Shown: positions 29 to 25,142 of the stretch, piece after piece
Numbering within the stretch: position 1 is the first letter of the stretch
Layout of the letters: every line of letters begins with the position of its first letter
Virus record (IMG/VR): IMGVR_UViG_3300017913_000448
Span: 1 to 25,747 of that record
Strand: one strand, 5' to 3'
From: a virus
Lineage: Duplodnaviria > Caudoviricetes
Length of the DNA: 25,747 nucleotides
The notes under the pieces: generated by a model
The model's database searches: none
Seen by the model: only the letters and a program-made list of their open reading frames with translations
What the model was told of the DNA's origin: nothing
Translations under genes and position numbers: made by a program

Positions 29-463
29 TTAAATCAGTCCTTTATTCCAAATGTCATCTGCAAGGTTGTCTTGCATCTCATAAGCCTCTACTTCCCAAGG
101 CAGGTCATAATATTTAGTATCAGCCTTTACAAGTTTTCCACGCCACTTAGCACGACCACTAGTAGTCAATTCATCAGTCATCTCTTTACGAGCATACTGC
201 TTTACATGAACCATTTCATGGCAGACAGTAGTGACAATATCTTTGACGCTCATACCCTTCTGAACTTCAATCTCAAACTGACGATTAGTGTCACCCATTA
301 AGCAATAGCCGACAGCATCATCTTTGATATTTTTGATTTTGATTTCTAGGTCTAGGGTGCGGTATCTAGGTAGCAAAGTTTTCAGACAGTAATCTACAGT
401 CTTCTGCACAATGATTTTTTCGGCTTTTGTGCCACCTTTGATTTCGATATAGTTCATAAACAC
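29..463 (-). CDS. Zincin-like metallopeptidase-domain protein (HExxH)
   Basis: 144 aa ORF; CHEMVHVKQY motif and downstream PWEVEAY typical of phage zincin/SprT-like proteins; GAGG RBS and own sigma70-type promoter upstream. Confidence 0.7.
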   Translation of the reverse strand: MFMNYIEIKGGTKAEKIIVQKTVDYCLKTLLPRYRTLDLEIKIKNIKDDAVGYCLMGDTNRQFEIEVQKGMSVKDIVTTVCHEMVHVKQYARKEMTDELTTSGRAKWRGKLVKADTKYYDLPWEVEAYEMQDNLADDIWNKGLI

Positions 464-480
464 CTCTCAATTACACAGTA

Positions 481-508
481 ATTATAGCACAAAATAGGTG
501 CTTGTCAA
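481..508 (-). promoter_or_regulatory. Sigma70-type (early) promoter TTGACA-16-TATAAT with extended -10 TG
   Basis: Minus strand reads TTGACAAGCACCTATTTTGTGCTATAAT, with an A-tract upstream. Confidence 0.8.
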
Positions 509-520
509 GGGTTTTTTTAC

Positions 521-558
521 AAAAAAAAGAGGCTACTGCCTCTCGACAATAGCCTCTT
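521..558 (-). terminator. Intrinsic terminator
   Basis: Minus strand GAGGCTATTGTC-GAGA-GGCAGTAGCCTC followed by T8 (GNRA loop). Confidence 0.85.
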
Positions 559-740
559 CAGGCGTTCTTGGATGAGGAGGATGAATCCCCTACATACGAC
601 TTCATGCGCCGCGACCTCCGTTTCCTCATGCGTTGATACCTGCTAAAGTATACCGCACTCTTACCTTACTAAGACCCAAGTTAGCAGTTGGTCTTATTTT
701 CACCCACGCCTGTATTCTTCGCCCACGCATACTATTGTAA
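559..740 (-). ncRNA. Putative structured late non-coding RNA with kissing-loop pseudoknot
   Basis: No ORF in the supplied track; lies between a TATAAATA promoter and a terminator; closing helix CAGGCGTGGGTGA/TCATCC-aaga-ACGCCTG, three internal stems, complementary loops CTGCTAA/TTAGCAG. Confidence 0.65.
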
Positions 741-743
741 TAA

Positions 744-751
744 TATTTATA
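744..751 (-). promoter_or_regulatory. T4-type late promoter (gp55-dependent) TATAAATA
   Basis: Exact TATAAATA on the minus strand, intergenic, just after the stop at 765. Confidence 0.75.
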
Positions 752-764
752 AGGCTTTTTGGCT

Positions 765-1079
765 CTAATCACCGATTAGAGTGATTTTTTTTAGGTTTAA
801 TTTGCTTATCATATCTGCTAGATATGGTATCAATGGGTCGGTGTAACCCATCTGCCAATTACCTATCGCCCTATGAATTCTGCCAATCAATGCCACCATT
901 TCAAGTGAAGATTTATCTGACATATCAAAGTGTGCTTGGTTTATAAGAGCAATGTTCTGAACAATCGTATCATAAACATATTGGTCAAGATACGCTTTAT
1001 CATCAAACTCTTTTATAGTATCTTCGATTTCTCTACCTTCTGCTGTTCTCTCAAAAGGAAAGTCTACAACATTGCTCAT
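765..1079 (-). CDS. Hypothetical protein
   Basis: 104 aa ORF with GGAGG RBS; N-terminal MSNVVDFP is common in phage proteins. Confidence 0.75.
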   Translation of the reverse strand: MSNVVDFPFERTAEGREIEDTIKEFDDKAYLDQYVYDTIVQNIALINQAHFDMSDKSSLEMVALIGRIHRAIGNWQMGYTDPLIPYLADMISKLNLKKITLIGD

Positions 1080-1087
1080 GTTACCTC

Positions 1088-1648
1088 CTACAAGTAGTGT
1101 AAATATCCACCTACTATGTATTTGGTCCCAGATTTAGGCATCATACCAGCATGTGGGTATGTCCACATTGGTGGGAACATTAGTAGTCTACCACGCTTTG
1201 GTTGAATGCCTTGTTCGATATCATGGAAGTAAGTTTCGCCACCTTCTTCAACATCATTTAGATACCAGAAGAAAACAAGATATCGTCTTGCAGATGCATA
1301 GTCTTGCACATCAACGTGATATGAAAACTCATCTTTACCGTTCGCTTCATAACGCTTCATACGAAATTCTTCGAATCCACTGTTTGCTTGCCACTGACCT
1401 TCTTGAATATCACAATCATTAACATACTGTTGAATTGACTGTTGTGCTTGTTTTTGCATCAGTTGAAACTCTTCACGGAATTCAGGATTTCGTGCAAGAT
1501 TGATTTCAGTAAAGTGACGCACACCTTCTAAGTCTGTAGATACTTGTTTATCTTTTAGCATCTCAAACTTGTCAATCAAGTTATCACAGAATGCACCATC
1601 AAGGGCGTCATCATATACTTTGATATATTTCACATATGGATTTTTCAT
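1088..1648 (-). CDS. 2OG-Fe(II) oxygenase, prolyl-4-hydroxylase-like
   Basis: HxD (YHVD), YLNDVEEGGET, distal H (YPHAG) and K; family common in marine T4-like phages. Confidence 0.88.
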   Translation of the reverse strand: MKNPYVKYIKVYDDALDGAFCDNLIDKFEMLKDKQVSTDLEGVRHFTEINLARNPEFREEFQLMQKQAQQSIQQYVNDCDIQEGQWQANSGFEEFRMKRYEANGKDEFSYHVDVQDYASARRYLVFFWYLNDVEEGGETYFHDIEQGIQPKRGRLLMFPPMWTYPHAGMMPKSGTKYIVGGYLHYL

Positions 1649-1851
1649 TTTTCTTCATACTTCCTGTCTAAATCAACTGCACCCGACTTCAGAATAAAAT
1701 CAGGAGTTCTACCTTCAAATGCACCACCGTATTTCAAGTGATTGTAAAACTTTCTTGCCGTCTGCTTACTTTTAGATTTACCTAACGGGTATCCTCTTTC
1801 GTACACGGTCCAAACACCGCTTGTGTCTTGTAGTTTATATTGCCCAGTCAT
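1645..1851 (-). CDS. Small hypothetical protein (start revised to MTGQYKL)
   Basis: The 5' part of track ORF 1645-1968 overlaps gp41; ATG at 1851 gives 68 aa with a GGAFEGRTPDF motif; 4-nt overlap with the next gene. Confidence 0.6.
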   Translation of the reverse strand: MTGQYKLQDTSGVWTVYERGYPLGKSKSKQTARKFYNHLKYGGAFEGRTPDFILKSGAVDLDRKYEEK

Positions 1852-3241
1852 CAGCCTTAACCTTCCTTTCACTTGCGAGACCATTACCAAAACTAGATTT
1901 GTCAAAAGCAGGTGTATCTGGTTGACCACTATCCACGATATCATCTTGTGCCTCCTGTTCGCAATCATATAGTCTCATTTTTGCTCTATCGATACCAACA
2001 ACAAATCTACGATTAGAGCCGGGGTCATTATAGCGATTTTTGAGTTGTTTCACCATAATCTGATTAAGTTCTTCCATCTCTTCAGTAGAGATTAACGCAA
2101 ACATTAAGTCGGCTGTGGCTGGAAGACCAAAGGATTCTGAGGTGTCTTCAAGACCAACATCAGTGTTCGAATAACCACTTCGTGTTGTCTGGGTTGCTGA
2201 TACAATCGGTAGATTAAACTCAACAGCAAGACCACGAATTTCTTCAGCAATCGACTTAACAATAGTATACGAATTCGCTTGTGTGTTTTTCACACGACTA
2301 GACGCACAGATATTCAAATAGTCAATATAGATGATATCTGGTTTGAAATTCTTCTTCAGATTTAGTTCATTTAGCAAATGACGAAAGTGACCTGCATGAA
2401 CACTAGCAGTCGGATATTCTTTGACAATCAACTTACCTTCGAACTTGTTCTTAATTCTGTTTACTTTCTTATCGAAAGTGTTCTTATCAATTTCTGGCAA
2501 CTGTGCAATAGGTACATCAAGTAAGTTCGCATCGATACGTTCTGCAATTTTCTCTTCTGCCATCTCAAGTGTTATGTACAGGACATTCTTACCTTGAGCA
2601 AGATTTGCCGCCGCACAGTGACACATGAATAGAGACTTACCAACGCCTGTACCTGCAAGTGCAATGTTCAATGATTTACGAGATAGACCACCTTTAGTAA
2701 TCTTGTTGAAATACTCAAGGTCAAAAGGTATCTTCTCTTCAACACGTTTGTAGAATTCAAATCGCTCATCGGTGTTATCAAGGTAATCGTGACCGATGTG
2801 TTGGTCAAAGTTCACACCCAAAGCATCAGACAGTAGTTTAGGAATTGCACCCTTGTCATTCTGCTTGTCACGCCCTTCCATGATACCAATAGATGACATA
2901 ATAGCATTGAAAATGGCACGTTCTTGACACCATTTTTCTGTGCTATCAAGCAACCATGTCACATTAGCATCTTCCATGTCTTTGAAAGATGCAATCATTT
3001 CAGAAGCCTCTGAGAAGATTTCTTCTGTAATGTCTTTGCGATTGTTTAGTTCAACAAGAATTGCTTCTTTTGTAGGTAAGGTATTATGCTTGTCTACAAA
3101 GTTAAACACCTCACGATAAACTTCACGCTCGGTTGCGTTTTCAAAATATTCGGGTTTTACAAACGGAAGTGTCTTCCTAGAAAAGTCTTCGTTAGTTAAG
3201 AGACTTTTCAGTAGGAGGTGTTCCAAGCGAGACGATACCAT
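1835..3241 (-). CDS. 41: Replicative DNA helicase (T4 gp41, DnaB family)
   Basis: Walker A AGTGVGKS, YITLEM, IYIDYLNI, SATQTTRSG, KQLKNRY; start taken at MVSSRLE (track start 3262). Confidence 0.95.
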   Translation of the reverse strand: MVSSRLEHLLLKSLLTNEDFSRKTLPFVKPEYFENATEREVYREVFNFVDKHNTLPTKEAILVELNNRKDITEEIFSEASEMIASFKDMEDANVTWLLDSTEKWCQERAIFNAIMSSIGIMEGRDKQNDKGAIPKLLSDALGVNFDQHIGHDYLDNTDERFEFYKRVEEKIPFDLEYFNKITKGGLSRKSLNIALAGTGVGKSLFMCHCAAANLAQGKNVLYITLEMAEEKIAERIDANLLDVPIAQLPEIDKNTFDKKVNRIKNKFEGKLIVKEYPTASVHAGHFRHLLNELNLKKNFKPDIIYIDYLNICASSRVKNTQANSYTIVKSIAEEIRGLAVEFNLPIVSATQTTRSGYSNTDVGLEDTSESFGLPATADLMFALISTEEMEELNQIMVKQLKNRYNDPGSNRRFVVGIDRAKMRLYDCEQEAQDDIVDSGQPDTPAFDKSSFGNGLASERKVKADDWAI

Positions 3242-3551
3242 CTTTATGTTTTTCCTTTTCACTTAAATCATTTTCGAGAATGTGTAGTAGAATATCACCG
3301 ACTAAACTCTCAAGTTCTTCTTTGTCAGTTTCATCTAATTGTTGGTCTGCAACATTCTTAGGTACCGTTACTATATCATACTCATAGCGAAATGTCAAGG
3401 TGCCATCTGGGTTTTCACTTTCACCAAACTGCACTCTACCATAACGGTAAGTGACTTCATCAAACTTCTCTGTATTTTTGAGTTTGATATGATATTCGTC
3501 ACCTACTGCATTCGGTACCATATCATAATAGGTTTCAATATTATCCCTCAT
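3192..3551 (-). CDS. Hypothetical protein at the gp40 position (between uvsX and 41)
   Basis: Start revised to MRDNIET (ATG 3551), 119 aa; synteny only, homology to gp40 not established. Confidence 0.65.
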
Positions 3552-6306: not shown

Positions 6307-8834
6307 ATGAATAAATCCTCCAGTGATGCCTTTTGTTCAGCCGACCATCCGATGACTTTTAGAATTGCATCTAGTGGCTCAACAAAAGATTTTGCGAACT
6401 GTTCGTCCTTATTCACATATTTAGTTAACTCAAACTCATCTGGTAGTGTGCCATCTGAGGGGAATGAAATACACCCGACAGTAGATGGGTTTGGCTCACG
6501 CAAATACAAGAACTTGATTTTGTCACCTTCATTGACGGCTTGATACTTACGACCTAGATTGTTGTCTTTGAGTAACTTGTTATAGACGATAGCACCTTTG
6601 ACATGCATAGGTGTACCTTTGATATACACCTGTGAACTATCAGAATACTTTTTGACACCGTTACAACCTCGTGGGAATGCAATGTCCCACACAGGCAAGG
6701 AATCAAACTCACTCTTAAAATCAGATACATATTTCTGTACAGTCTTCTCATCTGCGACCATGATAAGTTCAAGTGCTTCTTTAATTCGGTCACGACAAAC
6801 TGTAGGGGTCGATGACTTCACAGCCTCGATACCTGACATTTTCAGTTTTGCTTTTTCGTATCGAACACCTTCGTTATCCCAGATGTTTAGAATGTAGCGT
6901 TTCTTTGCGGTCCAGATTGCTTTTTCTGCAATCGCTTCACGCTTCATTTGCATCTTCTGGGCGTATGCGTTTACATAGTCGGCAAGGCTTTGATAACTTT
7001 TATCAATAAAAGGTTCAATTTTCTTTTCAGCCACTCGGTTGAGGAAGTCCACTTTCCGCCCGACACTCTCACTCTGCGATAGACCTGTTCCCTCTTCAAA
7101 CACGCTATTAACCAATTTGTCGAACACAATGTATATTGAATCCGTATCTGACGCCAAAACATAATCTTCTCCTTCCGTTTTCAAAAGATTATTGAAATAT
7201 TTATTGATGTCATTCGCAATCCAGCGAATACTAAACTGACCACCATATGTAATGGCTTCAGCCATTCTCAAATCATAGAAACGAAAGTATTGATTACCCA
7301 ACGCACCATAAGCACTGTTCAACTGAACTTTCTTTGCTAACTGAGTATTGTTATATGCAGAAGCCAGACGTTTATGTTCTGCTTTCTCTGCACCTGTTGT
7401 CTTCTCTGCTTTGTTCAACTCTTCAAGCATGAGTTTCTTATATTTCTTACGGTCGTCATACATGCGTTGCATCATTTCAGCAAGGAAACCTTGCTTGTCA
7501 GTTCTGAATAAAGAACCATTTGGTGCAACTGTCATGTTTGCAGACTTCAAACTTGACAAGTCATATTTCTTTTCAAGTAAACCTTCAACGTCAACTGGCA
7601 TTGTCTGACCATCAACCAATGTCTCTGGTGAGATATTGTATTGCATAATCAGGTGAGGATATAGACTGTTCAAGTCAAAAGACATAACCCAGTTGTGCAT
7701 ACCGACAATCGGGTCTTTCACATACGCACCAGCATAACGTGCAGACTTATCTGACTTACGCTTTGGTGGTAGAACCAGTTTCTTCTTCTTAAACTCATTA
7801 AAGATTAGTGTATCCCACATACGCACTTGAGCATATACGTCTTGGTAGTTAACCTTAGCGTCATATGCAAGAGACACAGCCATCTCAATCAACTTCATCT
7901 TGTCTTCAAGTCGGTCAACAAGGTCAACGTCTTTCACGTTATATTCGATAAACTTTTGATAGTCTTGTTGATACAATTTGTGTAGTGAACCAAACTCTGA
8001 ATAGTCTAGTTTACCTGTACCCAACTCATAGTTTGAGATGTAATCAAGTCGATAACTTTCATGGTTTGATACTGGTGCAAACTTACGATACAGTTCATAA
8101 TAATCAAGTGTACTGATACCGAGTAAGTCATAAACAATTTGTTCACGACCACCTGCATTTGTTCTGCGTTCACCAACCATACCCCAAGGTGACAACTTTC
8201 GTGTCATCTTCTCACCGACAATCTTGTTGCATCGATTAACGAGGTATGGAATATCAAAGAATTGAATGTTCCAACCAGTGATAATGTCTGGCTGAATTTC
8301 ATCCCACAAATCAAGGAACCGCATGAGCAAGTCTGCTTCATCACGGCAGTGAATCCAGTTTACATCGTCTTGGTGTGGAGTATAATCACCATAACCGAGA
8401 ACGTGATAAACGCCTTGTGATTTGATAGTGATTGAGATTACAGGCTCTAGTGCAGTATCGGGTTGTGGGAAACCATTATCAGAGCCAGTCTCAATATCGA
8501 AATTTGCTGTAACAAGTTTCGACATATCATAATCAACACGCTCTGGATATTCGTCTGCAACGTAACAGTATTGATAGTTTGTGTTGCCGTAAATCTCAAA
8601 GCCAGCAACATCTTCATACTGTTTCATAAACTGCCGTGCGTCATTGATACTGCCTTGTTCGACAGGTGAAACGTCACGACCATCTAGTGTTTTGAATTCT
8701 GTTTTCTTTGAACCGTTCGTAGGGACAAAGAGTGTAGGTTTGTATGGGATACGCAGATTGCGTCTTGCACCATTATCATACTCACGGACCAGAATGTTGT
8801 TTCCAATCATTGCAACATTCGTATAAAATCTCAT
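6303..8834 (-). CDS. 43: Family B DNA polymerase (T4 gp43)
   Basis: ExoI FDIET, ExoII GWNIQFFDIPY, DLNSLYP, KVQLNSAYG, SDTDS, KKRY. Confidence 0.97.
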   Translation of the reverse strand: MRFYTNVAMIGNNILVREYDNGARRNLRIPYKPTLFVPTNGSKKTEFKTLDGRDVSPVEQGSINDARQFMKQYEDVAGFEIYGNTNYQYCYVADEYPERVDYDMSKLVTANFDIETGSDNGFPQPDTALEPVISITIKSQGVYHVLGYGDYTPHQDDVNWIHCRDEADLLMRFLDLWDEIQPDIITGWNIQFFDIPYLVNRCNKIVGEKMTRKLSPWGMVGERRTNAGGREQIVYDLLGISTLDYYELYRKFAPVSNHESYRLDYISNYELGTGKLDYSEFGSLHKLYQQDYQKFIEYNVKDVDLVDRLEDKMKLIEMAVSLAYDAKVNYQDVYAQVRMWDTLIFNEFKKKKLVLPPKRKSDKSARYAGAYVKDPIVGMHNWVMSFDLNSLYPHLIMQYNISPETLVDGQTMPVDVEGLLEKKYDLSSLKSANMTVAPNGSLFRTDKQGFLAEMMQRMYDDRKKYKKLMLEELNKAEKTTGAEKAEHKRLASAYNNTQLAKKVQLNSAYGALGNQYFRFYDLRMAEAITYGGQFSIRWIANDINKYFNNLLKTEGEDYVLASDTDSIYIVFDKLVNSVFEEGTGLSQSESVGRKVDFLNRVAEKKIEPFIDKSYQSLADYVNAYAQKMQMKREAIAEKAIWTAKKRYILNIWDNEGVRYEKAKLKMSGIEAVKSSTPTVCRDRIKEALELIMVADEKTVQKYVSDFKSEFDSLPVWDIAFPRGCNGVKKYSDSSQVYIKGTPMHVKGAIVYNKLLKDNNLGRKYQAVNEGDKIKFLYLREPNPSTVGCISFPSDGTLPDEFELTKYVNKDEQFAKSFVEPLDAILKVIGWSAEQKASLEDLFI

Positions 8835-9118
8835 CTATCAACCACCTCAACAATTAAGCCATCATGCTCTGGACCGAGTATGATTTGGCAACTTAGACGA
8901 CTATTATATCGTACATCTTGCTCTAAGTCAAGGGTGTATTTTGAGAAATCGTCTAACTCAATTTCGTGTTCTGAGAGAATGCGAACATGACAAGTTCCGC
9001 AAACACAGTTACCACCACAGTCACCGAAGAGATTTGGAATTGCATCCATGAGGGTCTCTCCGATTTCTGCGGTGATATCTGAAATAATCCCGTTCGGGTA
9101 TTTTACACGAATATTCAT
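8831..9118 (-). CDS. 2Fe-2S ferredoxin, adrenodoxin/ISC type (auxiliary metabolic gene)
   Basis: CGGNCVCGTCHV and SRLSCQI (Cx5Cx2C...C pattern). Confidence 0.88.
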   Translation of the reverse strand: MNIRVKYPNGIISDITAEIGETLMDAIPNLFGDCGGNCVCGTCHVRILSEHEIELDDFSKYTLDLEQDVRYNSRLSCQIILGPEHDGLIVEVVDR

Positions 9119-9415: not shown

Positions 9416-10252
9416 TTATATTCCCATTTTCTCCATTGTTTTAGGTCCGACAATGCCGTCTGCCATAAGTTCGTTTTCGGCTTGCCACGCTTTAACAGCG
9501 GCTTCAGTACCTGGACCAAAGTCACCATCTGCGGTGATACCAAGTGCTTCCTGCACCTTCTTCACTTGTTCACCTGTTGAGCCACGCTTGATTACTGTGT
9601 AACTATTTGGATTATCTTCTGGCACTTCTGGTGCTTCGCCAGTAAAAATCTCAATCGCTTCCGCCCAATGTTTCATTCTATCTGCTAGTCCGATTGTGCC
9701 ACCATTGATACGCTTAGTCATTCCAAGAATATCCATTTTGTCGCAATATCTGTTGATGCTGTTTTCTTGCCAGAACCAGCAAGCACTTTCAATTGCGCCT
9801 TTAGGTGTTCGTACATAGTCAGTTGCTTCTTCGGGTGACATACCAATGTCACGCCCAAATTCTGTGTAATTATATCGACCAGTTAGTTGAAGGTATCCCC
9901 CTCCTCTAAATCGCCAACCATCGCCAGTATCAGTATCCCCATTATGCATACGGTTTGCGTAAATAACATTCGCAATTTTTTCTGGTTGTCTGTGATATTC
10001 TTCTGCATCTCTACCTGCTCTGACAAAGTATTTTGGGAAAATCGCATTCAATGCTTTTGAACTGTAGTTTAGATTTTCAGAAAGCACTTTGAAACCTGCA
10101 CTTTCATGTCCACACTGAGCAATAAAACCAGCAACTCTTTGAGGTGTTGTGATGTCGTATTTTGGGAATATCTCCAGCATGGCTTCGAAAAGTTCACCAC
10201 TATCTCTGTGCAAGATAGCATCTAGGTGAGCCTTAGTAAAATCAAACTGCAT
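9416..10252 (-). CDS. GH19 chitinase-like endolysin with C-terminal peptidoglycan-binding domain
   Basis: FIAQCGHESAGF, ENLNYS, DGWRFRGGGYLQLTGRYNY, TKRINGG; C-terminal ADGDFGPGT...ADGIVGPKT repeats. Confidence 0.9.
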   Translation of the reverse strand: MQFDFTKAHLDAILHRDSGELFEAMLEIFPKYDITTPQRVAGFIAQCGHESAGFKVLSENLNYSSKALNAIFPKYFVRAGRDAEEYHRQPEKIANVIYANRMHNGDTDTGDGWRFRGGGYLQLTGRYNYTEFGRDIGMSPEEATDYVRTPKGAIESACWFWQENSINRYCDKMDILGMTKRINGGTIGLADRMKHWAEAIEIFTGEAPEVPEDNPNSYTVIKRGSTGEQVKKVQEALGITADGDFGPGTEAAVKAWQAENELMADGIVGPKTMEKMGI

Positions 10253-13327: not shown

Positions 13328-13993
13328 TTAACCATATGTCGAGCCAGTTTCGACCGCTACGAAATAGCGCAAGTCGACCTTGGTAGATGTAAACAAACCA
13401 TAGCGAGGTGTTAGTTTCACGTTATATGCACCAGGTAGCATCTTCAGATTTTCAGTTTTGAATACCATCTTGAATGGTGTATCTGAAGTGTGGTCAACTT
13501 CAACATCATAACTATTTGATGTATCGTTTTTGATGTCGGATGCTTTAACGATAGTTGGACCAGAACCAGTGCTTTCGACTACGATGTCTGGCGCACCAAG
13601 AACTGCGGCACCACGGAGAACCTCTGCCAATGTTTGTGCAGAGATTTCAAACTCAACATCTGCATCTGTTGGTAGGTCTTTGTCTGGTGGTGAAATTACC
13701 ATGCTCTCATCAGCATAGAAATATTTGATTTTTGATTTACCGTTACCAACTACAACTGAATTTGTACCGAAGTCAAATTCTGCATTCTCTTGGAATAGTG
13801 ATACTGCACCCAAGAATTGGTTCAAATCATAGATGGCGAAATCGCTATCGAAATTTTCAGGAACAGAACATTCTGCGAGAATGTTTTTCTGACCACTGAT
13901 TGTACGAAGGCGATTGCCCGTCTTCACCGCAATGCCAGTGTTGATTGTTGAAAAGTTCTTCAACACTGTCAAGGTTTCATTACTAATTTTCAT
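13328..13993 (-). CDS. 45: Sliding clamp (gp45)
   Basis: MKISNETLTVLKNFSTIN, FAIYDLNQFL, ENLKMLPGAY. Confidence 0.95.
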   Translation of the reverse strand: MKISNETLTVLKNFSTINTGIAVKTGNRLRTISGQKNILAECSVPENFDSDFAIYDLNQFLGAVSLFQENAEFDFGTNSVVVGNGKSKIKYFYADESMVISPPDKDLPTDADVEFEISAQTLAEVLRGAAVLGAPDIVVESTGSGPTIVKASDIKNDTSNSYDVEVDHTSDTPFKMVFKTENLKMLPGAYNVKLTPRYGLFTSTKVDLRYFVAVETGSTYG

Positions 13994-14421
13994 ACTTTAT
14001 CTCCAGTAAATTTAGTTGCTCTTTCAAGTTGAGTTTCAATCCACTTTGCACATTCTTTAGCAGTCATTGCTTCATCTTTTACAGGTGGAAGTCGGTCGTC
14101 TTGACCAATCTCTCTAATCACAGATGCAGTCAGCATCATAGCAGAGGACATAATCAAGGCAACGTGCGGCAAACCCGAACCGCCTTCAGCATCGTCATAT
14201 TCACGACCACGCTCAAAGTCTTCAATGTGTCTTTTCAGGCTATCAATCATTTGTTGCCAGGGCAGACCCTTTTCCCAATTTCGATTATCATATTTTTTCG
14301 CACCATATTCAAGTGCGGCGGCACCTGCCGCCAAAGCCTCAAGGGGCAACTGGCGAAAATAGGGAACACCAATGCATTCCCTCATCGCTCCAGTTTCAGA
14401 TTTATTCCATTCTTGCATCAT
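13990..14421 (-). CDS. dATP/dGTP diphosphohydrolase domain protein (DUF5664-like)
   Basis: ETGAMRE, YGAKKYDNRNWEKG, SLKRH, GLPHVA; start revised to ATG 14421 after AAGGAG. Confidence 0.8.
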   Translation of the reverse strand: MMQEWNKSETGAMRECIGVPYFRQLPLEALAAGAAALEYGAKKYDNRNWEKGLPWQQMIDSLKRHIEDFERGREYDDAEGGSGLPHVALIMSSAMMLTASVIREIGQDDRLPPVKDEAMTAKECAKWIETQLERATKFTGDKV

Positions 14422-14428
14422 ATCTCCT

Positions 14429-15616
14429 TTAGAATGGTGCATATTCACCATCTTCAGTTTTAGGTGTTTCGGCTGTCTCACCTTCAGCGGTCATCGCCCC
14501 GCCATCCACTTTAGTGTAGAGGTCGAGGAAAGACTGCTTGGTATCAGCATCGAAACGGTTCACACAAAGTTCGATGGCTTTCATTTTGTCACCGAAGATT
14601 GAGTAGGCTTTCGCAATGTGAACCAGACGGCGAGTTGCGATAATCTCATCAACACCACCTTCATAGAACGTCTTACGAATGATATCAGCCCAGTCAATCA
14701 ACTTGCCGATGAATTCATCATCATTCAGTGACAGGCTATCGAACACCTTCTTCAGGATTTTCTTTTCAACAGCATTGCTGGCATACTCTTGCTCAACAGT
14801 AATTGGGAAACGCTCAAGGAACGCTTCATCAAGGATTTGAGCGGCGATGAAACGACCGTCATCAGAACCCTTACCTTTAGTGTTAGCAGTGGCAACAATG
14901 TTGAACCCTGGAGCAGGATGAATAACTTCACCCGTCTTCTTATTGATGTAAGGCTTACCTTCTGCAATCGCCTGAAGCGCAAGCAACTTGTTAGAGCCAC
15001 GGTCAATCTCATCAAGGACAAGAACCGCACCCTTACGCATTGCATTCAGAACAGGACCTTCACGATAGACAACATTGCCATCGACAAGAGTGTTACCACC
15101 GATGAGGTCATCTTCATCAGTCTCGATTGAGATAGAGATTTTAATCATCTCACGGTTAGAAGCGGCACAGGCTTGTTCGACCATGAAAGTCTTACCGTTA
15201 CCAGAGAGACCAGTCACAAGAACTGGGTAGAACATCTTAGAAACAAGAATGTTCTTCAGGTCATTGAAGAAGCCGAAAGGCACATAAAGTGGGTCTTTCT
15301 CTGGGACAAAGTTCTTTGTCACAGTCTCGGTAATGGCTTGTGTCATAGGAACGACCTTTGCAACTGGTTGTAAGTTCATAGTGGTATCAACTACGGGAGC
15401 AGTTTGCTCACCAGCAATTCGATACATGCCTCGACCAACACGGGTCTCTTTATTTGTATAGATGAAGCGAGGACGGGCGGCACCCATCTCTTCAGCAAGG
15501 TCTACAATCTGTTGCTTGGTCACAACTGGACCGAACTTTTCAACAGCGGCTTCAACAAAGGCAGCCTGGGTAGAAGTTAGATTTTTCATAATATATTCTC
15601 CTTTCAGAGGGTTCAA
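14429..15616 (-). CDS. CobS/MoxR-family AAA+ ATPase
   Basis: GLSGNGKT, EDDLIGG, LDEIDRG, ATANTKGKGS, AFLERF; true start may be MKNLTST a few codons downstream. Confidence 0.9.
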   Translation of the reverse strand: MNPLKGEYIMKNLTSTQAAFVEAAVEKFGPVVTKQQIVDLAEEMGAARPRFIYTNKETRVGRGMYRIAGEQTAPVVDTTMNLQPVAKVVPMTQAITETVTKNFVPEKDPLYVPFGFFNDLKNILVSKMFYPVLVTGLSGNGKTFMVEQACAASNREMIKISISIETDEDDLIGGNTLVDGNVVYREGPVLNAMRKGAVLVLDEIDRGSNKLLALQAIAEGKPYINKKTGEVIHPAPGFNIVATANTKGKGSDDGRFIAAQILDEAFLERFPITVEQEYASNAVEKKILKKVFDSLSLNDDEFIGKLIDWADIIRKTFYEGGVDEIIATRRLVHIAKAYSIFGDKMKAIELCVNRFDADTKQSFLDLYTKVDGGAMTAEGETAETPKTEDGEYAPF

Positions 15617-17978: not shown

Positions 17979-18662
17979 TTATTTTATTGCGATAGCACCG
18001 ACAAAGAGATGATTTTGCCAGAATGTCTGAACACTTTCAAATCCTGCAACTTCTAACATTGTGTTCAACTCTGACCAAGTGTTTGGTTTCAACAGATTTC
18101 TCAATGTCTGTTCTTTGTCCATAATATCTTTTGCTTCGAAATTTTCACGTTTGAAATCGTAGTACATGAATGTCAGCATGTCCTGAACTTTTGGACTACA
18201 TGAATATGTCTTCTCTGCAAAGATGAAAGCACCACCTGGGTTCAATGCGTCATAGACATTATTCAGAACATCTTGTCTATCTTTGCGTGGCATGAACTGT
18301 AGTGTAAAGATAGAGGTGATAAGAGATGCGTTTTCCATCCATGCATCACGCACATCTTTCTGTACTAGTTCAAGATTGTCTTTGACATAATCTGCCATAC
18401 GCTTACGCATATCATTGACAAATCCATCTGCATACTCATAGCCATAGTAATTACAGTGAGGTGCAAATTCTCTGTTTTGGTCAATCATCGCCGCAAGCGT
18501 TTTACCTGTCGAACAACCTAAGTCATAAACATTCGTATCATCTTCAACGAAATACCGAGACATTTTCACAATGTCATCATGTAGTGTAGAGTAACCTCTA
18601 ATTGATTGGTCGATATGATTATCGAAACCCTCATCACGGTGTGCAAATGTAAAATCAGCCAT
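17979..18662 (-). CDS. cmoA: Carboxy-S-adenosyl-L-methionine synthase-like protein
   Basis: VYDLGCSTG, ENASL, FTLQF, LNPGGA..AEK, DFKR, AGFE..FWQ all track E. coli CmoA as I recall it. Confidence 0.85.
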   Translation of the reverse strand: MADFTFAHRDEGFDNHIDQSIRGYSTLHDDIVKMSRYFVEDDTNVYDLGCSTGKTLAAMIDQNREFAPHCNYYGYEYADGFVNDMRKRMADYVKDNLELVQKDVRDAWMENASLITSIFTLQFMPRKDRQDVLNNVYDALNPGGAFIFAEKTYSCSPKVQDMLTFMYYDFKRENFEAKDIMDKEQTLRNLLKPNTWSELNTMLEVAGFESVQTFWQNHLFVGAIAIK

Positions 18663-19797
18663 TGTTAAAACCTTTCAATACGTTTTCGTATATTGAACCT
18701 GCTACTGCTTTGTACATCAAAGGAGCAACGGCTCGCCCTAGTCGTTCAACCTGTTGGTCAAACTCACCTGTCAATTTATAATCTTCTGGAAAGCCCATCA
18801 AACGGATGCATTCTTTCACTGTCAGTTTTCTATTTTCAGAAGGATGAAAAACTCCACTCATTCCTCTCTTCTGACCTTGTTGTGTAAGGGTCGGGCTTGG
18901 CAGATGCGGTGCTGGTCTAATCATATTAAAACAAGATGCTTTCGGGTTCCAAGAACGGAACTGTGGGTCACTCGGTTTTGTATGTTTCTTAGGGTTAAAG
19001 GGAAGTGGCTCTAAGAACTTCTTCTGAAAAGAATTTTGTACAAAATCAAGGAGCATCTCGACCTCTTTCGGGTCGTTTTCAATATCAGCAATGGCATCGC
19101 CAAGCCCTATATGAGCCTCCACTGTTCTCTTTGGAAAGAGTGAGTGAAGGTTCAAAAATGATAGACCAACAGCATCACATACGTCATCACGAACACAGAT
19201 AAAAATCGTTCTCTCTCGTGCTTGAGGTACTCCGTAATCTGCGGCATTCAATACTTCGTATGTGACGCTGTAGCCTATCTTTTCAAACTCATTGACGAAT
19301 GCATTCAACTTTCCTCGTGCTTCACCAAACGTAATTCCTTTTACGTTCTCTGCTACGATTACTTTCGGTTGAACTTCTTCAGCAATGCGAATGAATTCAT
19401 AAAACAAGTCTTCGATTGCGACTTGCATTTTTCCGTCCGAATATGACTTCTCTTTGCCCCATCCCTTTTCTCGCTTTCCTGCAACTGAGAAAGCACTGCA
19501 AGGAGGTGAGCCGTCAAGTATGTCGAGTTCGCCCTTGGCAACTCCCGCCATATCAAGGAAATCTTGTCCTGTGTACTGTTTGATATCATCGACTAATACC
19601 TTTGTATCAGGGAAGTTAGCAGTATAAGTTTCAACTGCCGCCTCAACAAACTCATTGATTAGAAGAATATTACCACCAGCAAGACGATAGCCTGTAGAAC
19701 TACCACCGCCGCCAGCAAAGCAACTAATCGCCGTAAACTTTTTTGCTTCCGATGCTCTTCTAACATCATCGACATAATATTTTTCATATCTCATCAT
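18655..19797 (-). CDS. C5-cytosine DNA methyltransferase homolog, predicted carboxymethyltransferase
   Basis: Motif I FAGGGG, IV GSPPCSAFS, VI ENVKG, VIII QARER, IX RLMGFP, X LGRAV (N to R). Confidence 0.9.
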   Translation of the reverse strand: MMRYEKYYVDDVRRASEAKKFTAISCFAGGGGSSTGYRLAGGNILLINEFVEAAVETYTANFPDTKVLVDDIKQYTGQDFLDMAGVAKGELDILDGSPPCSAFSVAGKREKGWGKEKSYSDGKMQVAIEDLFYEFIRIAEEVQPKVIVAENVKGITFGEARGKLNAFVNEFEKIGYSVTYEVLNAADYGVPQARERTIFICVRDDVCDAVGLSFLNLHSLFPKRTVEAHIGLGDAIADIENDPKEVEMLLDFVQNSFQKKFLEPLPFNPKKHTKPSDPQFRSWNPKASCFNMIRPAPHLPSPTLTQQGQKRGMSGVFHPSENRKLTVKECIRLMGFPEDYKLTGEFDQQVERLGRAVAPLMYKAVAGSIYENVLKGFNNG

Positions 19798-19799
19798 AT

Positions 19800-19845
19800 C
19801 ACTTTTCTGCGGTTATTTTGTCCATACTAACACACTTTTCTGCGG
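19800..19845. repeat. 13-bp direct repeat CACTTTTCTGCGG x2
   Basis: Copies at 19800-19812 and 19833-19845. Confidence 0.85.
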
Positions 19846-19852
19846 ATGTCAA
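19824..19852 (-). promoter_or_regulatory. Sigma70-type promoter TTGACA-17-TAGTAT upstream of the MTase-cmoA pair
   Basis: Minus strand TTGACATCCGCAGAAAAGTGTGTTAGTAT; the -35 overlaps the upstream TGA stop. Confidence 0.7.
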
Positions 19853-20655
19853 GCAAAAAGTTGATTATCTATATCAATCCAGTCACGAACCAAATCCATA
19901 GTTCGAATTCTGTTTTTGTAATTCAATTCTTTATCTTCTAATAGCGTTTCAAAATGTTCTGGAATACCTGCGACAAGTTGAAGATTTGCGTGTCTACGTC
20001 TCTTAGGCATTTGCTTAAATTCTGGGTAGTCATTTACAATAGGTGCTTTCTGAAAAGGTTTATTAAAGAAATCCCAGTCGTGTTCCATCATATAATTTGC
20101 AACAGAACAACGAACATAAGGTGCAACTAGATTTGCTTCAATCTCTTCTGCAAGTTGCTCTTGCTGTCGAATACCTGCGGGATTCTCTGCACCAAAGTAT
20201 TGAGTACGAAACTCATCGAATAATTCTTTTGTATGTTTGTAATGCATATTCGCTTTCTTCGATACGCCATACCAACCATCTGCGGCAACGCCTGACAGAA
20301 CGTGCTTCTCTTTGATTTTTGGGTAGACATAGAGAAATGGAAATGTGCATTCAACATGTGTCTTTTTCTTGCAATCGTAATATCTCATTAGGCGCAAGAA
20401 ATCATCTTTCAAATTGTTGACAGGAACATCAATCTCGTGATGGTCCCAACCGTAAATCTCTGCGGCTGTTCTAGCCGTTAGATTGTCATCATTGTCAACA
20501 CCGTTGACTTTCATCGTGTATGTGTGAACTTTCTTACCTAATCTCATTGCTGAGAAAGCACAGGTCATGCTATCGATACCGCCAGACATAAGCACAGCAA
20601 CATCGTCAGATGGTGCTTCGTTGCGAATGATTTCTGTAATAATATTTGCAATCAT
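19849..20655 (-). CDS. Asparagine-synthetase-like (PP-loop) ATP-dependent amide ligase lacking a glutaminase domain
   Basis: LMSGGIDS PP-loop, VLSGVAADGWYG (compare AsnB LSGEGADE.FGG), APY. Confidence 0.8.
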   Translation of the reverse strand: MIANIITEIIRNEAPSDDVAVLMSGGIDSMTCAFSAMRLGKKVHTYTMKVNGVDNDDNLTARTAAEIYGWDHHEIDVPVNNLKDDFLRLMRYYDCKKKTHVECTFPFLYVYPKIKEKHVLSGVAADGWYGVSKKANMHYKHTKELFDEFRTQYFGAENPAGIRQQEQLAEEIEANLVAPYVRCSVANYMMEHDWDFFNKPFQKAPIVNDYPEFKQMPKRRRHANLQLVAGIPEHFETLLEDKELNYKNRIRTMDLVRDWIDIDNQLFA

Positions 20656-21083
20656 ATCTTCTCAACTTTCAGACCACACTTTTCTAAAAAGTCAATTCCG
20701 TCTCTACTTCTATATCCATTTTTATAGTAAACTGCACCGATGCCCGATTGATATATCAACTTAGCACAATCAATACAGGGTGCATGAGTTACAAAAAGCG
20801 TAGCATCTTTACCACTCTCTGAACTAGATGCTAGTTTTGCAATCGCATTGGTTTCTGCATGTAACACTTCTGGTTTAGATTTATACAACAATGAACCAAC
20901 TTCATCTTGTCCAACTACATCTTCACAGTTATTATCCCAACCGCTAGGCATACCATTATATCCAATCGATATAATTCTGTTATCTTTCACAATCACACAA
21001 CCGACCTGTAGCCTCTTAGCAGATGATAATTCTGCATAGACTTCTGCTACCTTCATGTGTGCGATTATGAACTTTTGTTTCAT
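20652..21083 (-). CDS. cd: dCMP deaminase
   Basis: GYNG, HAETNAI, PCIDC zinc motifs. Confidence 0.92.
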   Translation of the reverse strand: MKQKFIIAHMKVAEVYAELSSAKRLQVGCVIVKDNRIISIGYNGMPSGWDNNCEDVVGQDEVGSLLYKSKPEVLHAETNAIAKLASSSESGKDATLFVTHAPCIDCAKLIYQSGIGAVYYKNGYRSRDGIDFLEKCGLKVEKI

Positions 21084-23500: not shown

Positions 23501-24555
23501 GTATCAGTCGCCTGCAACGCCTCCGAATATAGGTTTCTCATAAGACTATCAAGTTTTTGCTTATCAACATTTACTTCCATTCCTTCGATATACTTCGAAA
23601 GAATAGTCACAGTGTCTTCAGCCTCGTCCACTATATCATCTTCATCGTAACTTGTCAAGTCTACATCTTCAACAATTGTCAGTTGAGACGGGTTATTTTT
23701 GTAGATTGCTTCAATAAACAAGTCAAAGTTATATGGGTTACTCTTCTCCCTTACAACTACTTTCACTTGTTTATTTGCTAGATGTTTGAAATTCTCTGGG
23801 TCAACATTGATGTCTTGTGCATCGTTGTACACAACTTTATGAAACATCTTGTTAGGGTTCTGAATAAACTCTAGTTCTCTCGTTTCTGTATCAAAGATAT
23901 GAAAGCCTCTAGGGTCGTTGTAGTCAGACCATGTAAGTTCATAAGGGTTACCCAGATAATAGATATGACCATTATCAGACTTATGATGATAGTGACCAGT
24001 GAATACCATATCAAATCTATTAAAAATAGAAGCGTCCATTCCGTGGTCGTTTTCATATCCTCGATACATTGCGAAACCGCTGAGTTCAAGGTGTCCCATA
24101 AGGACTTCTGCTTTTGCATTCTGAACAAACTCCATGCTTTGCTGATAGTTCTCTGTGCAAATCCACGGTAGAATTGCAATGTCTAGTCCACCAACATTGA
24201 TAACTGTTGCTTCTGAATATGTAATAATATTGTCATAATCATTCAACAGCAAGTCGGGACTATTTACATCATTCGTATTTTTGAAGTATGTGTCATGGTT
24301 GCCAATGATTGCATGTTGTGTAACACCACGCTCTTTCAGTGGGTCAAACCACATCTTCTTACTACGTTCTAAGGTGTGAAAATTGACATACTTGCGACGG
24401 TCAAATGTATCACCGAGATTAATGATAGTATCAATGCTATGCCTATCGATGTAAGGTATAACAGTATCTTTGTAAAACGCTTCATAGTAATCTAAAAATT
24501 GTACATTGTCGTTTCGGGCACCGAAGTGCTGGTCTGTTATCAACAAAACTTTCAT
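23497..24555 (-). CDS. 47: Recombination endonuclease nuclease subunit (gp47, Mre11/SbcD-like)
   Basis: TDQHFG, LGDTFD, GNHD, GHLE, GHYH. Confidence 0.96.
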   Translation of the reverse strand: MKVLLITDQHFGARNDNVQFLDYYEAFYKDTVIPYIDRHSIDTIINLGDTFDRRKYVNFHTLERSKKMWFDPLKERGVTQHAIIGNHDTYFKNTNDVNSPDLLLNDYDNIITYSEATVINVGGLDIAILPWICTENYQQSMEFVQNAKAEVLMGHLELSGFAMYRGYENDHGMDASIFNRFDMVFTGHYHHKSDNGHIYYLGNPYELTWSDYNDPRGFHIFDTETRELEFIQNPNKMFHKVVYNDAQDINVDPENFKHLANKQVKVVVREKSNPYNFDLFIEAIYKNNPSQLTIVEDVDLTSYDEDDIVDEAEDTVTILSKYIEGMEVNVDKQKLDSLMRNLYSEALQATDT

Positions 24556-25142
24556 TACTTACTCTCTTCATCATTTTCATCATCTGGGTAAAGTGCCGCT
24601 TCCAGCCCTTGTTTCTTTTTACGCTTCTTGCGCTTTTCTTCTTTTGCAGTCTCGTAATCTGAAATGAAACTTTCCATAACTTCATACATTGGACTATCAG
24701 GTGTTAACCCGATATCAAATTCATTATCACCAGATGTAGAATGCTCAACAAGTTCACCAAATAGGTCTTGCTTTTGCATCATCTTGTATTTGATGTAAGT
24801 TTGTCTTTTTTCTTTTTGAATTCTACGCAGGTATGCGTAGTAGATAATTTGTGTGAAATACGCAAACGGATTCTGCGACTTCTCTGGATTGAAGTTGTCG
24901 ATATAAAGAAGACAATTTTCAATTCCGTCTGAAATCATATCATCACGATATGTGTAGTTTATAAAATTGGGTTTATAAGAAAGTCTCTGTGCGATTAGTA
25001 GAAAACATGAGCCGATATAATCGGGTATTTTGGGCTTTGGGTCGCCACATTCTTCTGCCTCTCGAACCGCTGTGCGATAGTCAATCATCGCTTGCAGGAA
25101 CTTCTTATTGTCCACATAATGCTTTGGGTTCTGCTTGCTCAT
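24555..25142 (-). CDS. 55: Late-transcription sigma factor (gp55)
   Basis: HYVDNKKFL, NFINYTYRDDMISDGIENC, NPFAYFTQIIYYAYLRRIQKEK. Confidence 0.96.
   Translation of the reverse strand: MSKQNPKHYVDNKKFLQAMIDYRTAVREAEECGDPKPKIPDYIGSCFLLIAQRLSYKPNFINYTYRDDMISDGIENCLLYIDNFNPEKSQNPFAYFTQIIYYAYLRRIQKEKRQTYIKYKMMQKQDLFGELVEHSTSGDNEFDIGLTPDSPMYEVMESFISDYETAKEEKRKKRKKKQGLEAALYPDDENDEESK

Follow-up and report, generated by a model that had tools for sequence, protein, structure and literature searches.

A predicted structured late RNA gene behind gp41 in one clade of T4-like phages

T4 encodes two small, stable non-coding RNAs, RNA C and RNA D (139 and 119 nt), within its tRNA cluster (NC_000866). Marine T4-like phages are also described as carrying manA RNA, an element of about 190-200 nt with several stems and a proposed loop pairing that is found in 5′ UTRs (PMC2864571). 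Other phage small RNAs are abundant late and have no known role; these include those of LUZ7 (PMC9163698) and the orphan structured RNAs GOLLD and ROOL (PMC12286853). Both GOLLD and ROOL have quaternary kissing loops, and one ROOL kissing loop, assigned as a tertiary contact by covariation, turned out to be quaternary; raiA (205 nt), described in the same source, is a monomer (PMC12286853). The pRNA of phi29 (174 nt) carries two complementary loops on a three-way junction (PMC11476376, PMC10893049). As described in these sources, pRNA is reported only for phi29-like phages (PMC11476376), in which it is believed to stand in for an absent terminase domain; T4 packs with its large terminase and proheads alone (PMC10893049).

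We analyzed a stretch of viral DNA of 25,747 nt, which we call the window. This 25.7-kb fragment of a T4-like phage (about 14% complete) contains genes that PHROGs names gp41, a UvsX-like recombinase, and a gp55-like late sigma factor, and its DNA polymerase is ~52% identical to cyanophage and Melnitz polymerases. Other sequencing runs from this study bear the label marine metagenome; no RNA dataset was listed as containing the sequence, and in three of the study's runs, which are probably DNA and so have no bearing on transcription, no contig covered the RNA. A 302-nt gap separates a 104-aa ORF from a 144-aa HExxH protein, all on the minus strand, and within it positions 751-522 (minus strand) form a stand-alone unit composed of a T4-type late promoter, a structured core of ~175 nt, and a strong terminator. 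The features of this unit and its surroundings are:

24555-25142, gp55-like late sigma factor (PHROGs name)
765..3262, minus strand, upstream context as a whole (gp41, oxygenase, 104-aa ORF)
1835-3262, minus strand, gp41 helicase
1088-1648, minus strand, 2OG-Fe(II) oxygenase
765-1079, minus strand, 104-aa ORF, confined to the window's subclade
744..751, minus strand, T4-type (gp55) late promoter TATAAATA, exact in 13/13 sequences
522..738, minus strand, predicted RNA of ~215 nt, whose 5′ end we take to lie ~6 nt past the promoter, as is presumably the spacing in T4
522..559, minus strand, intrinsic terminator (hairpin and U tract)
481..508, minus strand, sigma-70-type promoter serving the downstream genes and lying beyond the RNA, 12/12 consensus match
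29-463, minus strand, downstream 144-aa HExxH-motif protein, function not known

After removal of duplicates we obtained 13 distinct sequences, the window and 12 homologues. The homologue cores are ~57-80% identical to that of the window (L339 and L350 share an identical core), and all homologues lie behind gp41 and a 2OG-oxygenase-like gene. The late promoter that a preliminary description of the locus had placed at 751-744 on the minus strand is present as TATAAATA in 13/13 homologues. Because the same octamer precedes the capsid, scaffold, protease, portal, tail-tube region, and other structural genes of an RNA-bearing relative (G001), the late promoter is credible. The terminator, also anticipated after the structured stretch, lies at 559-522; it is kept in 13/13 as a hairpin of -23 to -26 kcal/mol followed by a U tract, although about six sequence types occur, and the promoter-to-U-tract distance is 224-241 nt among the 13 homologues. 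A sigma-70-type promoter (10-12/12 match) follows ≤220 nt past the terminator in 13/13 loci; thus, the downstream genes are independent of the RNA transcript. These genes vary from subclade to subclade, and a homologue of the 144-aa protein is the first or second ORF after the RNA in most loci. As no gene follows the RNA within its predicted transcript and a separate promoter serves the genes beyond it, action in trans is well supported.

The fixed position behind the helicase gene in 13/13 loci, together with the G-rich tracts, could also suit an origin next to gp41, where the RNA would prime replication or form an R-loop. T4 replication origins, however, use middle promoters, no AT-rich unwinding element was noticed, and a late promoter and a strong terminator also argue against this explanation, which we consider very unlikely.

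We also noted several other genes in these contigs. The window carries a dATP/dGTP diphosphohydrolase-like gene (13990-14481, minus strand) and a gene cluster (17979-21083, minus strand) whose products are a SAM methyltransferase, an Asn-synthase/QueC-like protein, and two further proteins that are likely a C5 DNA methylase and a deaminase. The diphosphohydrolase/methyltransferase cluster recurs in relatives G001 and G002, and it possibly represents a DNA-modification pathway. A 2Fe-2S ferredoxin (8831-9118) and a GH19 lysin with a peptidoglycan-binding domain (9416-10252) are also encoded on the minus strand. At the contig end (25679-25699), two TATAAATA sites overlap on opposite strands. Among the genes right downstream of the RNA, L353:3571-3954 (+) is an ORF with a cytidine-deaminase fold (PF00383), and similar ORFs occur in L330, L335, L342, and L350.

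We compared the RNA with described families. At the Rfam 15 gathering threshold, the cmscan that the preliminary description had proposed matched no family in the window or in the 12 homologue loci, and E-value scans of three copies gave weak, short matches far under cut-off, mostly in the terminator. The preliminary description had also named manA as a possible identity. The RNA is like manA in its size, its multiple stems, its proposed loop pairing, and its presence in T4-like phages; unlike manA, which is described in 5′ UTRs (PMC2864571), its transcript holds no gene, since the RNA runs directly into a terminator and a separate promoter serves the genes beyond it in 13/13. The manA model (RF01745) gave no match in the window at E ≤ 10 but recovered the known copies in P-SSM2 (182 bits) and S-SSM4 (122 bits), and our model of the RNA, R1, did not match these two manA copies. 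Identity with manA is therefore excluded in both directions with working controls. ARAGORN detected no tRNA or tmRNA in the window or the homologue stretches, and at E ≤ 10 the alpha_tmRNA model matched 0/1 records and the tmRNA model 0/5, with controls detected; these results agree with the earlier impression that the RNA is neither. The negative tmRNA models also led us to reject a tmRNA-like elbow at helices P5-P6.

In an unrelated T4-like contig (L101:3542-3750, plus strand), TATAAATA stands right after a 2OG-oxygenase gene. The sequence that follows it matches alphaproteobacterial tmRNA over its tag-frame end and 3′ hairpin, without the tRNA-like part, at 35.9 bits (E 6e-9, under the cut-off of 50). 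It is a candidate for a late-expressed tmRNA fragment or a tag-ending mini gene.

RNA C and RNA D of T4 are likewise small, stable non-coding RNAs of a T4-type phage, but they are shorter, lie within a tRNA cluster, and have other folds, and R1 scores below 0 bits over both. GOLLD and ROOL are similar as phage-borne orphan structured RNAs with kissing loops (PMC12286853), but the new RNA is a third to a quarter of their size, has a single loop pair, lacks an Rfam match, and is not beside tRNA genes in the stretches seen. The preliminary description had drawn a loose analogy to phi29 pRNA. The two RNAs are similar in size and both bear two complementary loops on a junction, three-way in pRNA (PMC11476376, PMC10893049) and four-way here. 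The analogy is weak, as G001 does not have a phi29-like genome: it encodes large (545 aa) and small terminase subunits, a T4-type portal, capsid, scaffold, and protease.

Our full-text literature search, whose coverage leaves out most subscription papers, returned no description of this RNA. One study lists 8,495 candidate RNAs from IMG/VR (PMC10690425). As these are 29-151 nt long, they are too short to hold the whole RNA; the readable tables contain no match to the motif, and a fragment may be among the unnamed candidates. The RNA family is apparently uncatalogued.

The homologues came from several searches. A protein-anchored scan gave 3 true loci among 67 oxygenase loci (L053/L054 and L055), and a downstream-protein scan gave two true loci in the best 80 of 399 (L120, on the same contig as L055, and L198). 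Motif scans added L209 (4/10 loci true), L288 and L292 (at least six true among the 120 matches listed), and L333, L335, L337, L339, L350, and L351 (15/25 loci true). A pattern for the 3′ half that did not include the promoter (11/28 loci true) recovered L333, L337, and L351 again. In all, 10 of the 13 sequences were also found by searches independent of the promoter. The other three were found solely via the promoter and 5′ motif; therefore, these features are selected in them.

Other searches returned no homologue. Five partial relatives contained no second RNA copy, and sister-clade loci had no such RNA behind the oxygenase. A loop-sequence pattern matched 52 loci in viral contigs, none a homologue; the 104-aa neighbor as query found no locus, the L353 oxygenase matched only itself, and three copies used as blastn queries hit no homologue among cultured phage records. 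R1 found no copy in nine whole phage records (Melnitz, AG-345-E15, S-SCSM1, Cr30, phiN3, DLP_6, P-SSM2, S-SSM4, and S-SZBM1), where the best score was 12.6 bits. A P-SSM2 match at 11.4 bits was rejected as coding sequence with broken stems, as were weak matches in L169 and L156, which we read as coding; a further weak match, in L163, scored 16.3 bits over 67 nt. In cellular genomes, the exact promoter and 5′ motif pattern gave three matches, none with the RNA body, and R1 found no copy in 151 genomes sampled from a single proteobacterial phylum, in each of which only 17 candidates were scored.

We built a gp41 tree with 42 rows, of which the 12 that bear the RNA make up one side of a branch with support of 100/98. 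On the opposite side are 18 rows without the RNA in the available DNA; the other 12, whose downstream DNA is <2 kb long, carry no label, and L288 and L339 contain too little gp41. The 13 sequences represent few independent events, falling into about five subclades. Compared with L339, L335, and L209, L350 combines the core of L339 with the terminator of L209, and its downstream region is different. Likely, L350 arose by recombination at the 3′ edge of the RNA (the P1/terminator boundary), which swapped the early-gene cassette.

From 5′ to 3′, the unit consists of TATAAATA, 11-16 nt, the motif AUGYGUGGGYGA, a linker of 6-10 nt, P1/P2, the junction, and the terminator. A four-way junction joins P2, P3, P4, and P5, and P5 bears the hairpin P6 and a 15-nt bulge. 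The elements of the core are:

719..730, minus strand, 5′ single-stranded motif AUGYGUGGGYGA
711-706/565-560, minus strand, closing helix P1; pair 4 is C-G in 3 and U-A in 10 sequences
705-700/575-570, minus strand, closing helix P2; two-sided changes in 4/4 counted pairs
670..696, minus strand, P3 (hairpin A) with loop A at 687-680; 5/5 pairs two-sided, 100% paired
658..669, minus strand, J3/4 linker, purine-rich, 8-12 nt, GG then WAG/WUG-like
629..657, minus strand, P4 (hairpin B) with an internal loop and loop B at 647-640
640..687, minus strand, kissing helix of loop A (687-681) with loop B (646-640), from covariation
621..625, minus strand, GGAAA in J4/5, 13/13
619-615/580-576 (576..619), minus strand, P5; 4/5 pairs two-sided, 98.5% paired
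612-608/600-596 (596..612), minus strand, P6 hairpin with loop GCAUGAA
581..595, minus strand, J6/5 bulge of 15 nt, GGGG (590-587) then WUYC; GGGG in 13/13

Two-sided changes back six helices around the junction. In the covariance-model (CM) alignment of the 13 sequences, 85.9% of cells pair and 18/34 pairs show two-sided changes; 0/500 shuffles scored as high and slid controls reached 31-45%, although hand-set segments and the CM-fitted alignment, used in part of the counting, both lean towards the model. On a plain MAFFT alignment, 82.5% of cells are paired and 19/41 pairs are two-sided when the kiss is included. RNAalifold alone recovered only P1, P3, and part of P6 from this alignment, in which MAFFT misaligns the variable arms. 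In the hand-fitted model, G-U cells outnumber A-C cells 26 to 4, which favors the minus strand as the RNA.

This covariation among homologues downstream of gp41, which the preliminary description had proposed as a check, bears out its multiway junction. The closing helix is present as 711-700 with 575-560, interrupted by an AAGA bulge (569-566). Hairpins A (696-670) and B (657-629) are where they had been drawn; 5/5 pairs of hairpin A covary, and the lower stem of P4 pairs in 52/52 cells, with 4/4 pairs two-sided by hand segmentation and weaker results on automatic alignments. For a third arm, stem C, the outer part (P5) is conserved, but the inner ATGAA/TTCAT pairs in only 35/65 cells and was rejected in favor of P6, which is paired in 64/65 cells with compensatory changes in two subclades. 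A G-tract hairpin that rivals P5 in the RNAalifold fold of the MAFFT alignment was also rejected, as P5 covaries better. P6, the 5′ motif, GGAAA, and the J6/5 bulge are additions to the earlier model. The folding z-score of 521-751 is -3.26, and seven cores without the terminator have z-scores of -1.1 to +0.8 versus shuffles. Because the value of -3.26 is due to the terminator, stability is no argument and the case rests on comparison.

In the window, loop A (CTGCTAA, 687-681) can form 7 bp with loop B (TTAGCAG, 646-640); in 200,000 draws of random 8-nt loops of the same composition, seven contiguous pairs occurred in 0.016%. The kissing loops proposed earlier are thus complementary and covary, but the stated length of 7 bp applies to the window alone: of the 12 other sequences, 11 have 6 bp and one has 5 bp. 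Position 1 is C-G in 3 sequences, G-C in 7, and A-C in 3; position 3 is G-C in 8 and A-U in 5; and position 5 is U-A in 2 and A-U in 11. Positions 2 (U-A) and 4 (C-G) are constant in all 13, position 6 is A-U in 10, G-U in 2, and U-U in 1, and position 7 pairs in 4/13. Covariation at positions 1, 3, and 5 falls on a different branch of the gp41 tree in each case, representing about three independent events rather than thirteen.

Several observations bear on whether the kiss occurs within one molecule. Hairpin A is 21-27 nt long and hairpin B 28-34 nt, or 41 nt with a 14-nt insertion, and the arm sizes stay matched, with larger loops accompanying short P3 stems. In the window and L055, A-B pairing (-8.0 and -6.1 kcal/mol) is kept though self-pairing is lost (A-A -1.7 and B-B -2.3 kcal/mol). 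Loop cores are palindromic in 11/13, making self-pairing possible, and A-A self-pairing is at least as strong as A-B pairing in 5/13 (L335, L339, L350, L337, and L351). From the matched arm lengths and the maintenance of A-B rather than self pairing, we infer that the kiss is probably intramolecular; the strong A-A self-pairing in five sequences and the ROOL precedent, in which covariation had suggested a tertiary contact (PMC12286853), count against this.

Alternatively, A-B contacts between neighboring molecules could build dimers or rings that would serve as an RNA-only particle or as a scaffold in the virion or prohead. Such an assembly would be consistent with the palindromic loop cores, the conserved heterotypic A-B complementarity, the late signal shared with structural genes, and the quaternary kissing loops of ROOL and GOLLD (PMC12286853). 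However, there is a single loop pair, on adjacent arms of matched length; raiA, of similar size, is a monomer (PMC12286853); and the phages of this clade encode a portal and terminases of the T4 type. For DNA packaging in T4, large terminase and proheads suffice (PMC10893049). We view pairing between molecules as unlikely.

The 5′ motif, GGAAA, and the GGGG bulge are near-invariant and have no covarying partner. Ten of the 12 positions of the 5′ motif are invariant across 13/13, and the other two change only between C and U. Position 4 of the motif and pair 4 of P1 change together across the two main subclades, which counts as a single event and falls on the deepest branch. The motif also recurs in near-identical form as the 5′ strands of P1-P2 in the window's subclade (730-719 and 711-700 are identical at 10/12 positions).

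One explanation for these segments is that they form the site of a ribozyme or small-molecule binder (5′ motif, GGAAA, and GGGG-WUYC), closed by pairing of the 5′ tail with loop L6 and by a short GAA/UUC pseudoknot. The invariant unpaired nucleotides do cluster around P5-P6, and both contacts are possible in 10/13 sequences (AUGY of the motif with GCAU of L6, and GAA with UUC). Against this, neither contact shows compensatory change, both are out of register in the L335 subclade, and 5′-tail duplexes exceed shuffles in only 2/13. No Rfam ribozyme or riboswitch matched, and the 12 stretches scanned contain no tRNA gene as a substrate. On the sequence data, catalysis or ligand binding appears distinctly unlikely. 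Taken as one possibility, a new functional class of RNA, whether a ribozyme or ligand fold built on the 5′ tail, GGAAA, and the GGGG bulge or an intermolecular A-B ring, is doubtful.

The 5′ motif could instead be the seed of a base-pairing sRNA directed at an RNA of the host or the phage; the folded body would shield and display it, and an Hfq-like chaperone would bind the U-rich terminator and the A/G-rich linkers. The motif is a 12-nt single-stranded element that changes only between C and U, as is expected opposite G, and the unit has its own promoter and terminator. However, six contigs contained no complement common to the phages, the best being 10/12 Watson-Crick matches in unrelated places, and a far simpler body would do for carrying a seed. 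We regard an sRNA as about as improbable as the ribozyme.

We also considered a cis-acting attenuator or riboswitch, in which the open 3′ strand of P1 would pair with the 5′ arm of the terminator and permit late read-through downstream. Although a hairpin of 4-7 bp is possible in 13/13, with a central pair that is G-C, G-U, or A-U, 6-20% of shuffled terminator arms equal it, and the terminator fold is stabler by 7-11 kcal/mol. As the downstream genes also have their own promoter in 13/13 and differ between subclades, this explanation is quite improbable.

The preliminary description was nearly right that the region lacks an ORF. A 34-codon frame starts at 730 in the window, but the AUG of the 5′ motif opens a frame of only three codons in 10/13. 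A small protein gene behind the conservation could draw on a TTG frame of 28-31 codons that starts in loop B, is preceded by a G-rich stretch, and stays open in the 10 homologues that do not belong to the window's subclade; within it, the lengths of several indels add up to multiples of three. The window, however, has a stop there and no start codon. Across eight representatives, codon differences in this 3′-half frame are 119 non-synonymous versus 31 synonymous, and variable columns are spread 4/6/5 over the codon positions. We rejected the small ORF, and a protein gene is hardly credible. The 13 sequences contain no conserved small ORF, which had been put forward as a finding that would undermine an RNA gene.

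The locus thus has the features of a stand-alone late phage ncRNA: a late promoter, a terminator, covarying structure, and no conserved ORF. Covariation and the retention of promoter and terminator in 13/13 support the free-standing late structured RNA gene of the preliminary description. At the level of sequence, the comparison demonstrates selection on the promoter, the terminator, P1-P6, and the loop A-loop B pairing, and this is very probably a real, conserved, structured RNA gene of one T4-like clade.

Our preferred reading, which we hold tentatively, is that the RNA is a monomeric late RNA that serves as a decoy or scaffold, its intramolecular kiss helping to expose invariant purine-rich strands to a protein. 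The late promoter would drive a predicted stable RNA of ~215 nt in late infection, and this RNA likely folds as a monomer. P1, P2, P5, and P6 would stack as a long axis, as the 0-1-nt spacing between P5 and P2 suggests, with P3 beside P4 and clamped by the kiss within one molecule. The clamp would gather the invariant purine-rich strands into a fixed surface. In the least certain step, this surface may hold a phage protein or titrate an RNA-binding protein of the host that acts in defence, decay, or translation. That step draws on the conservation pattern and on precedent. The cores are no stabler than shuffles, which would fit an RNA whose folding depends on a partner or on tertiary contacts. 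Purine and lysine riboswitch aptamers have two arms clamped by a loop-loop contact. The new RNA resembles them in the clamping of neighboring junction arms by a putative intramolecular contact and in its conserved junction strands, but it lacks an Rfam match, a controlled downstream gene, and a credibly switchable terminator.

The plan of this RNA is unusual, combining a conserved 5′ tail, a four-way junction, kissing loops, and a large invariant bulge. One phage clade kept it at one locus while gp41 diverged to ~65% identity and the neighbors changed. Because the RNA is ~180 nt long, has 13 natural variants, and has swappable loops, the role of an orphan late phage RNA becomes directly testable. 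If it has a protein partner, the RNA would represent a new route of host takeover or counter-defence. Catalysis or ring assembly, if true, would be a larger surprise; a ring acting in late assembly would place an RNA in a phage family with a packaging motor believed to be RNA-free.
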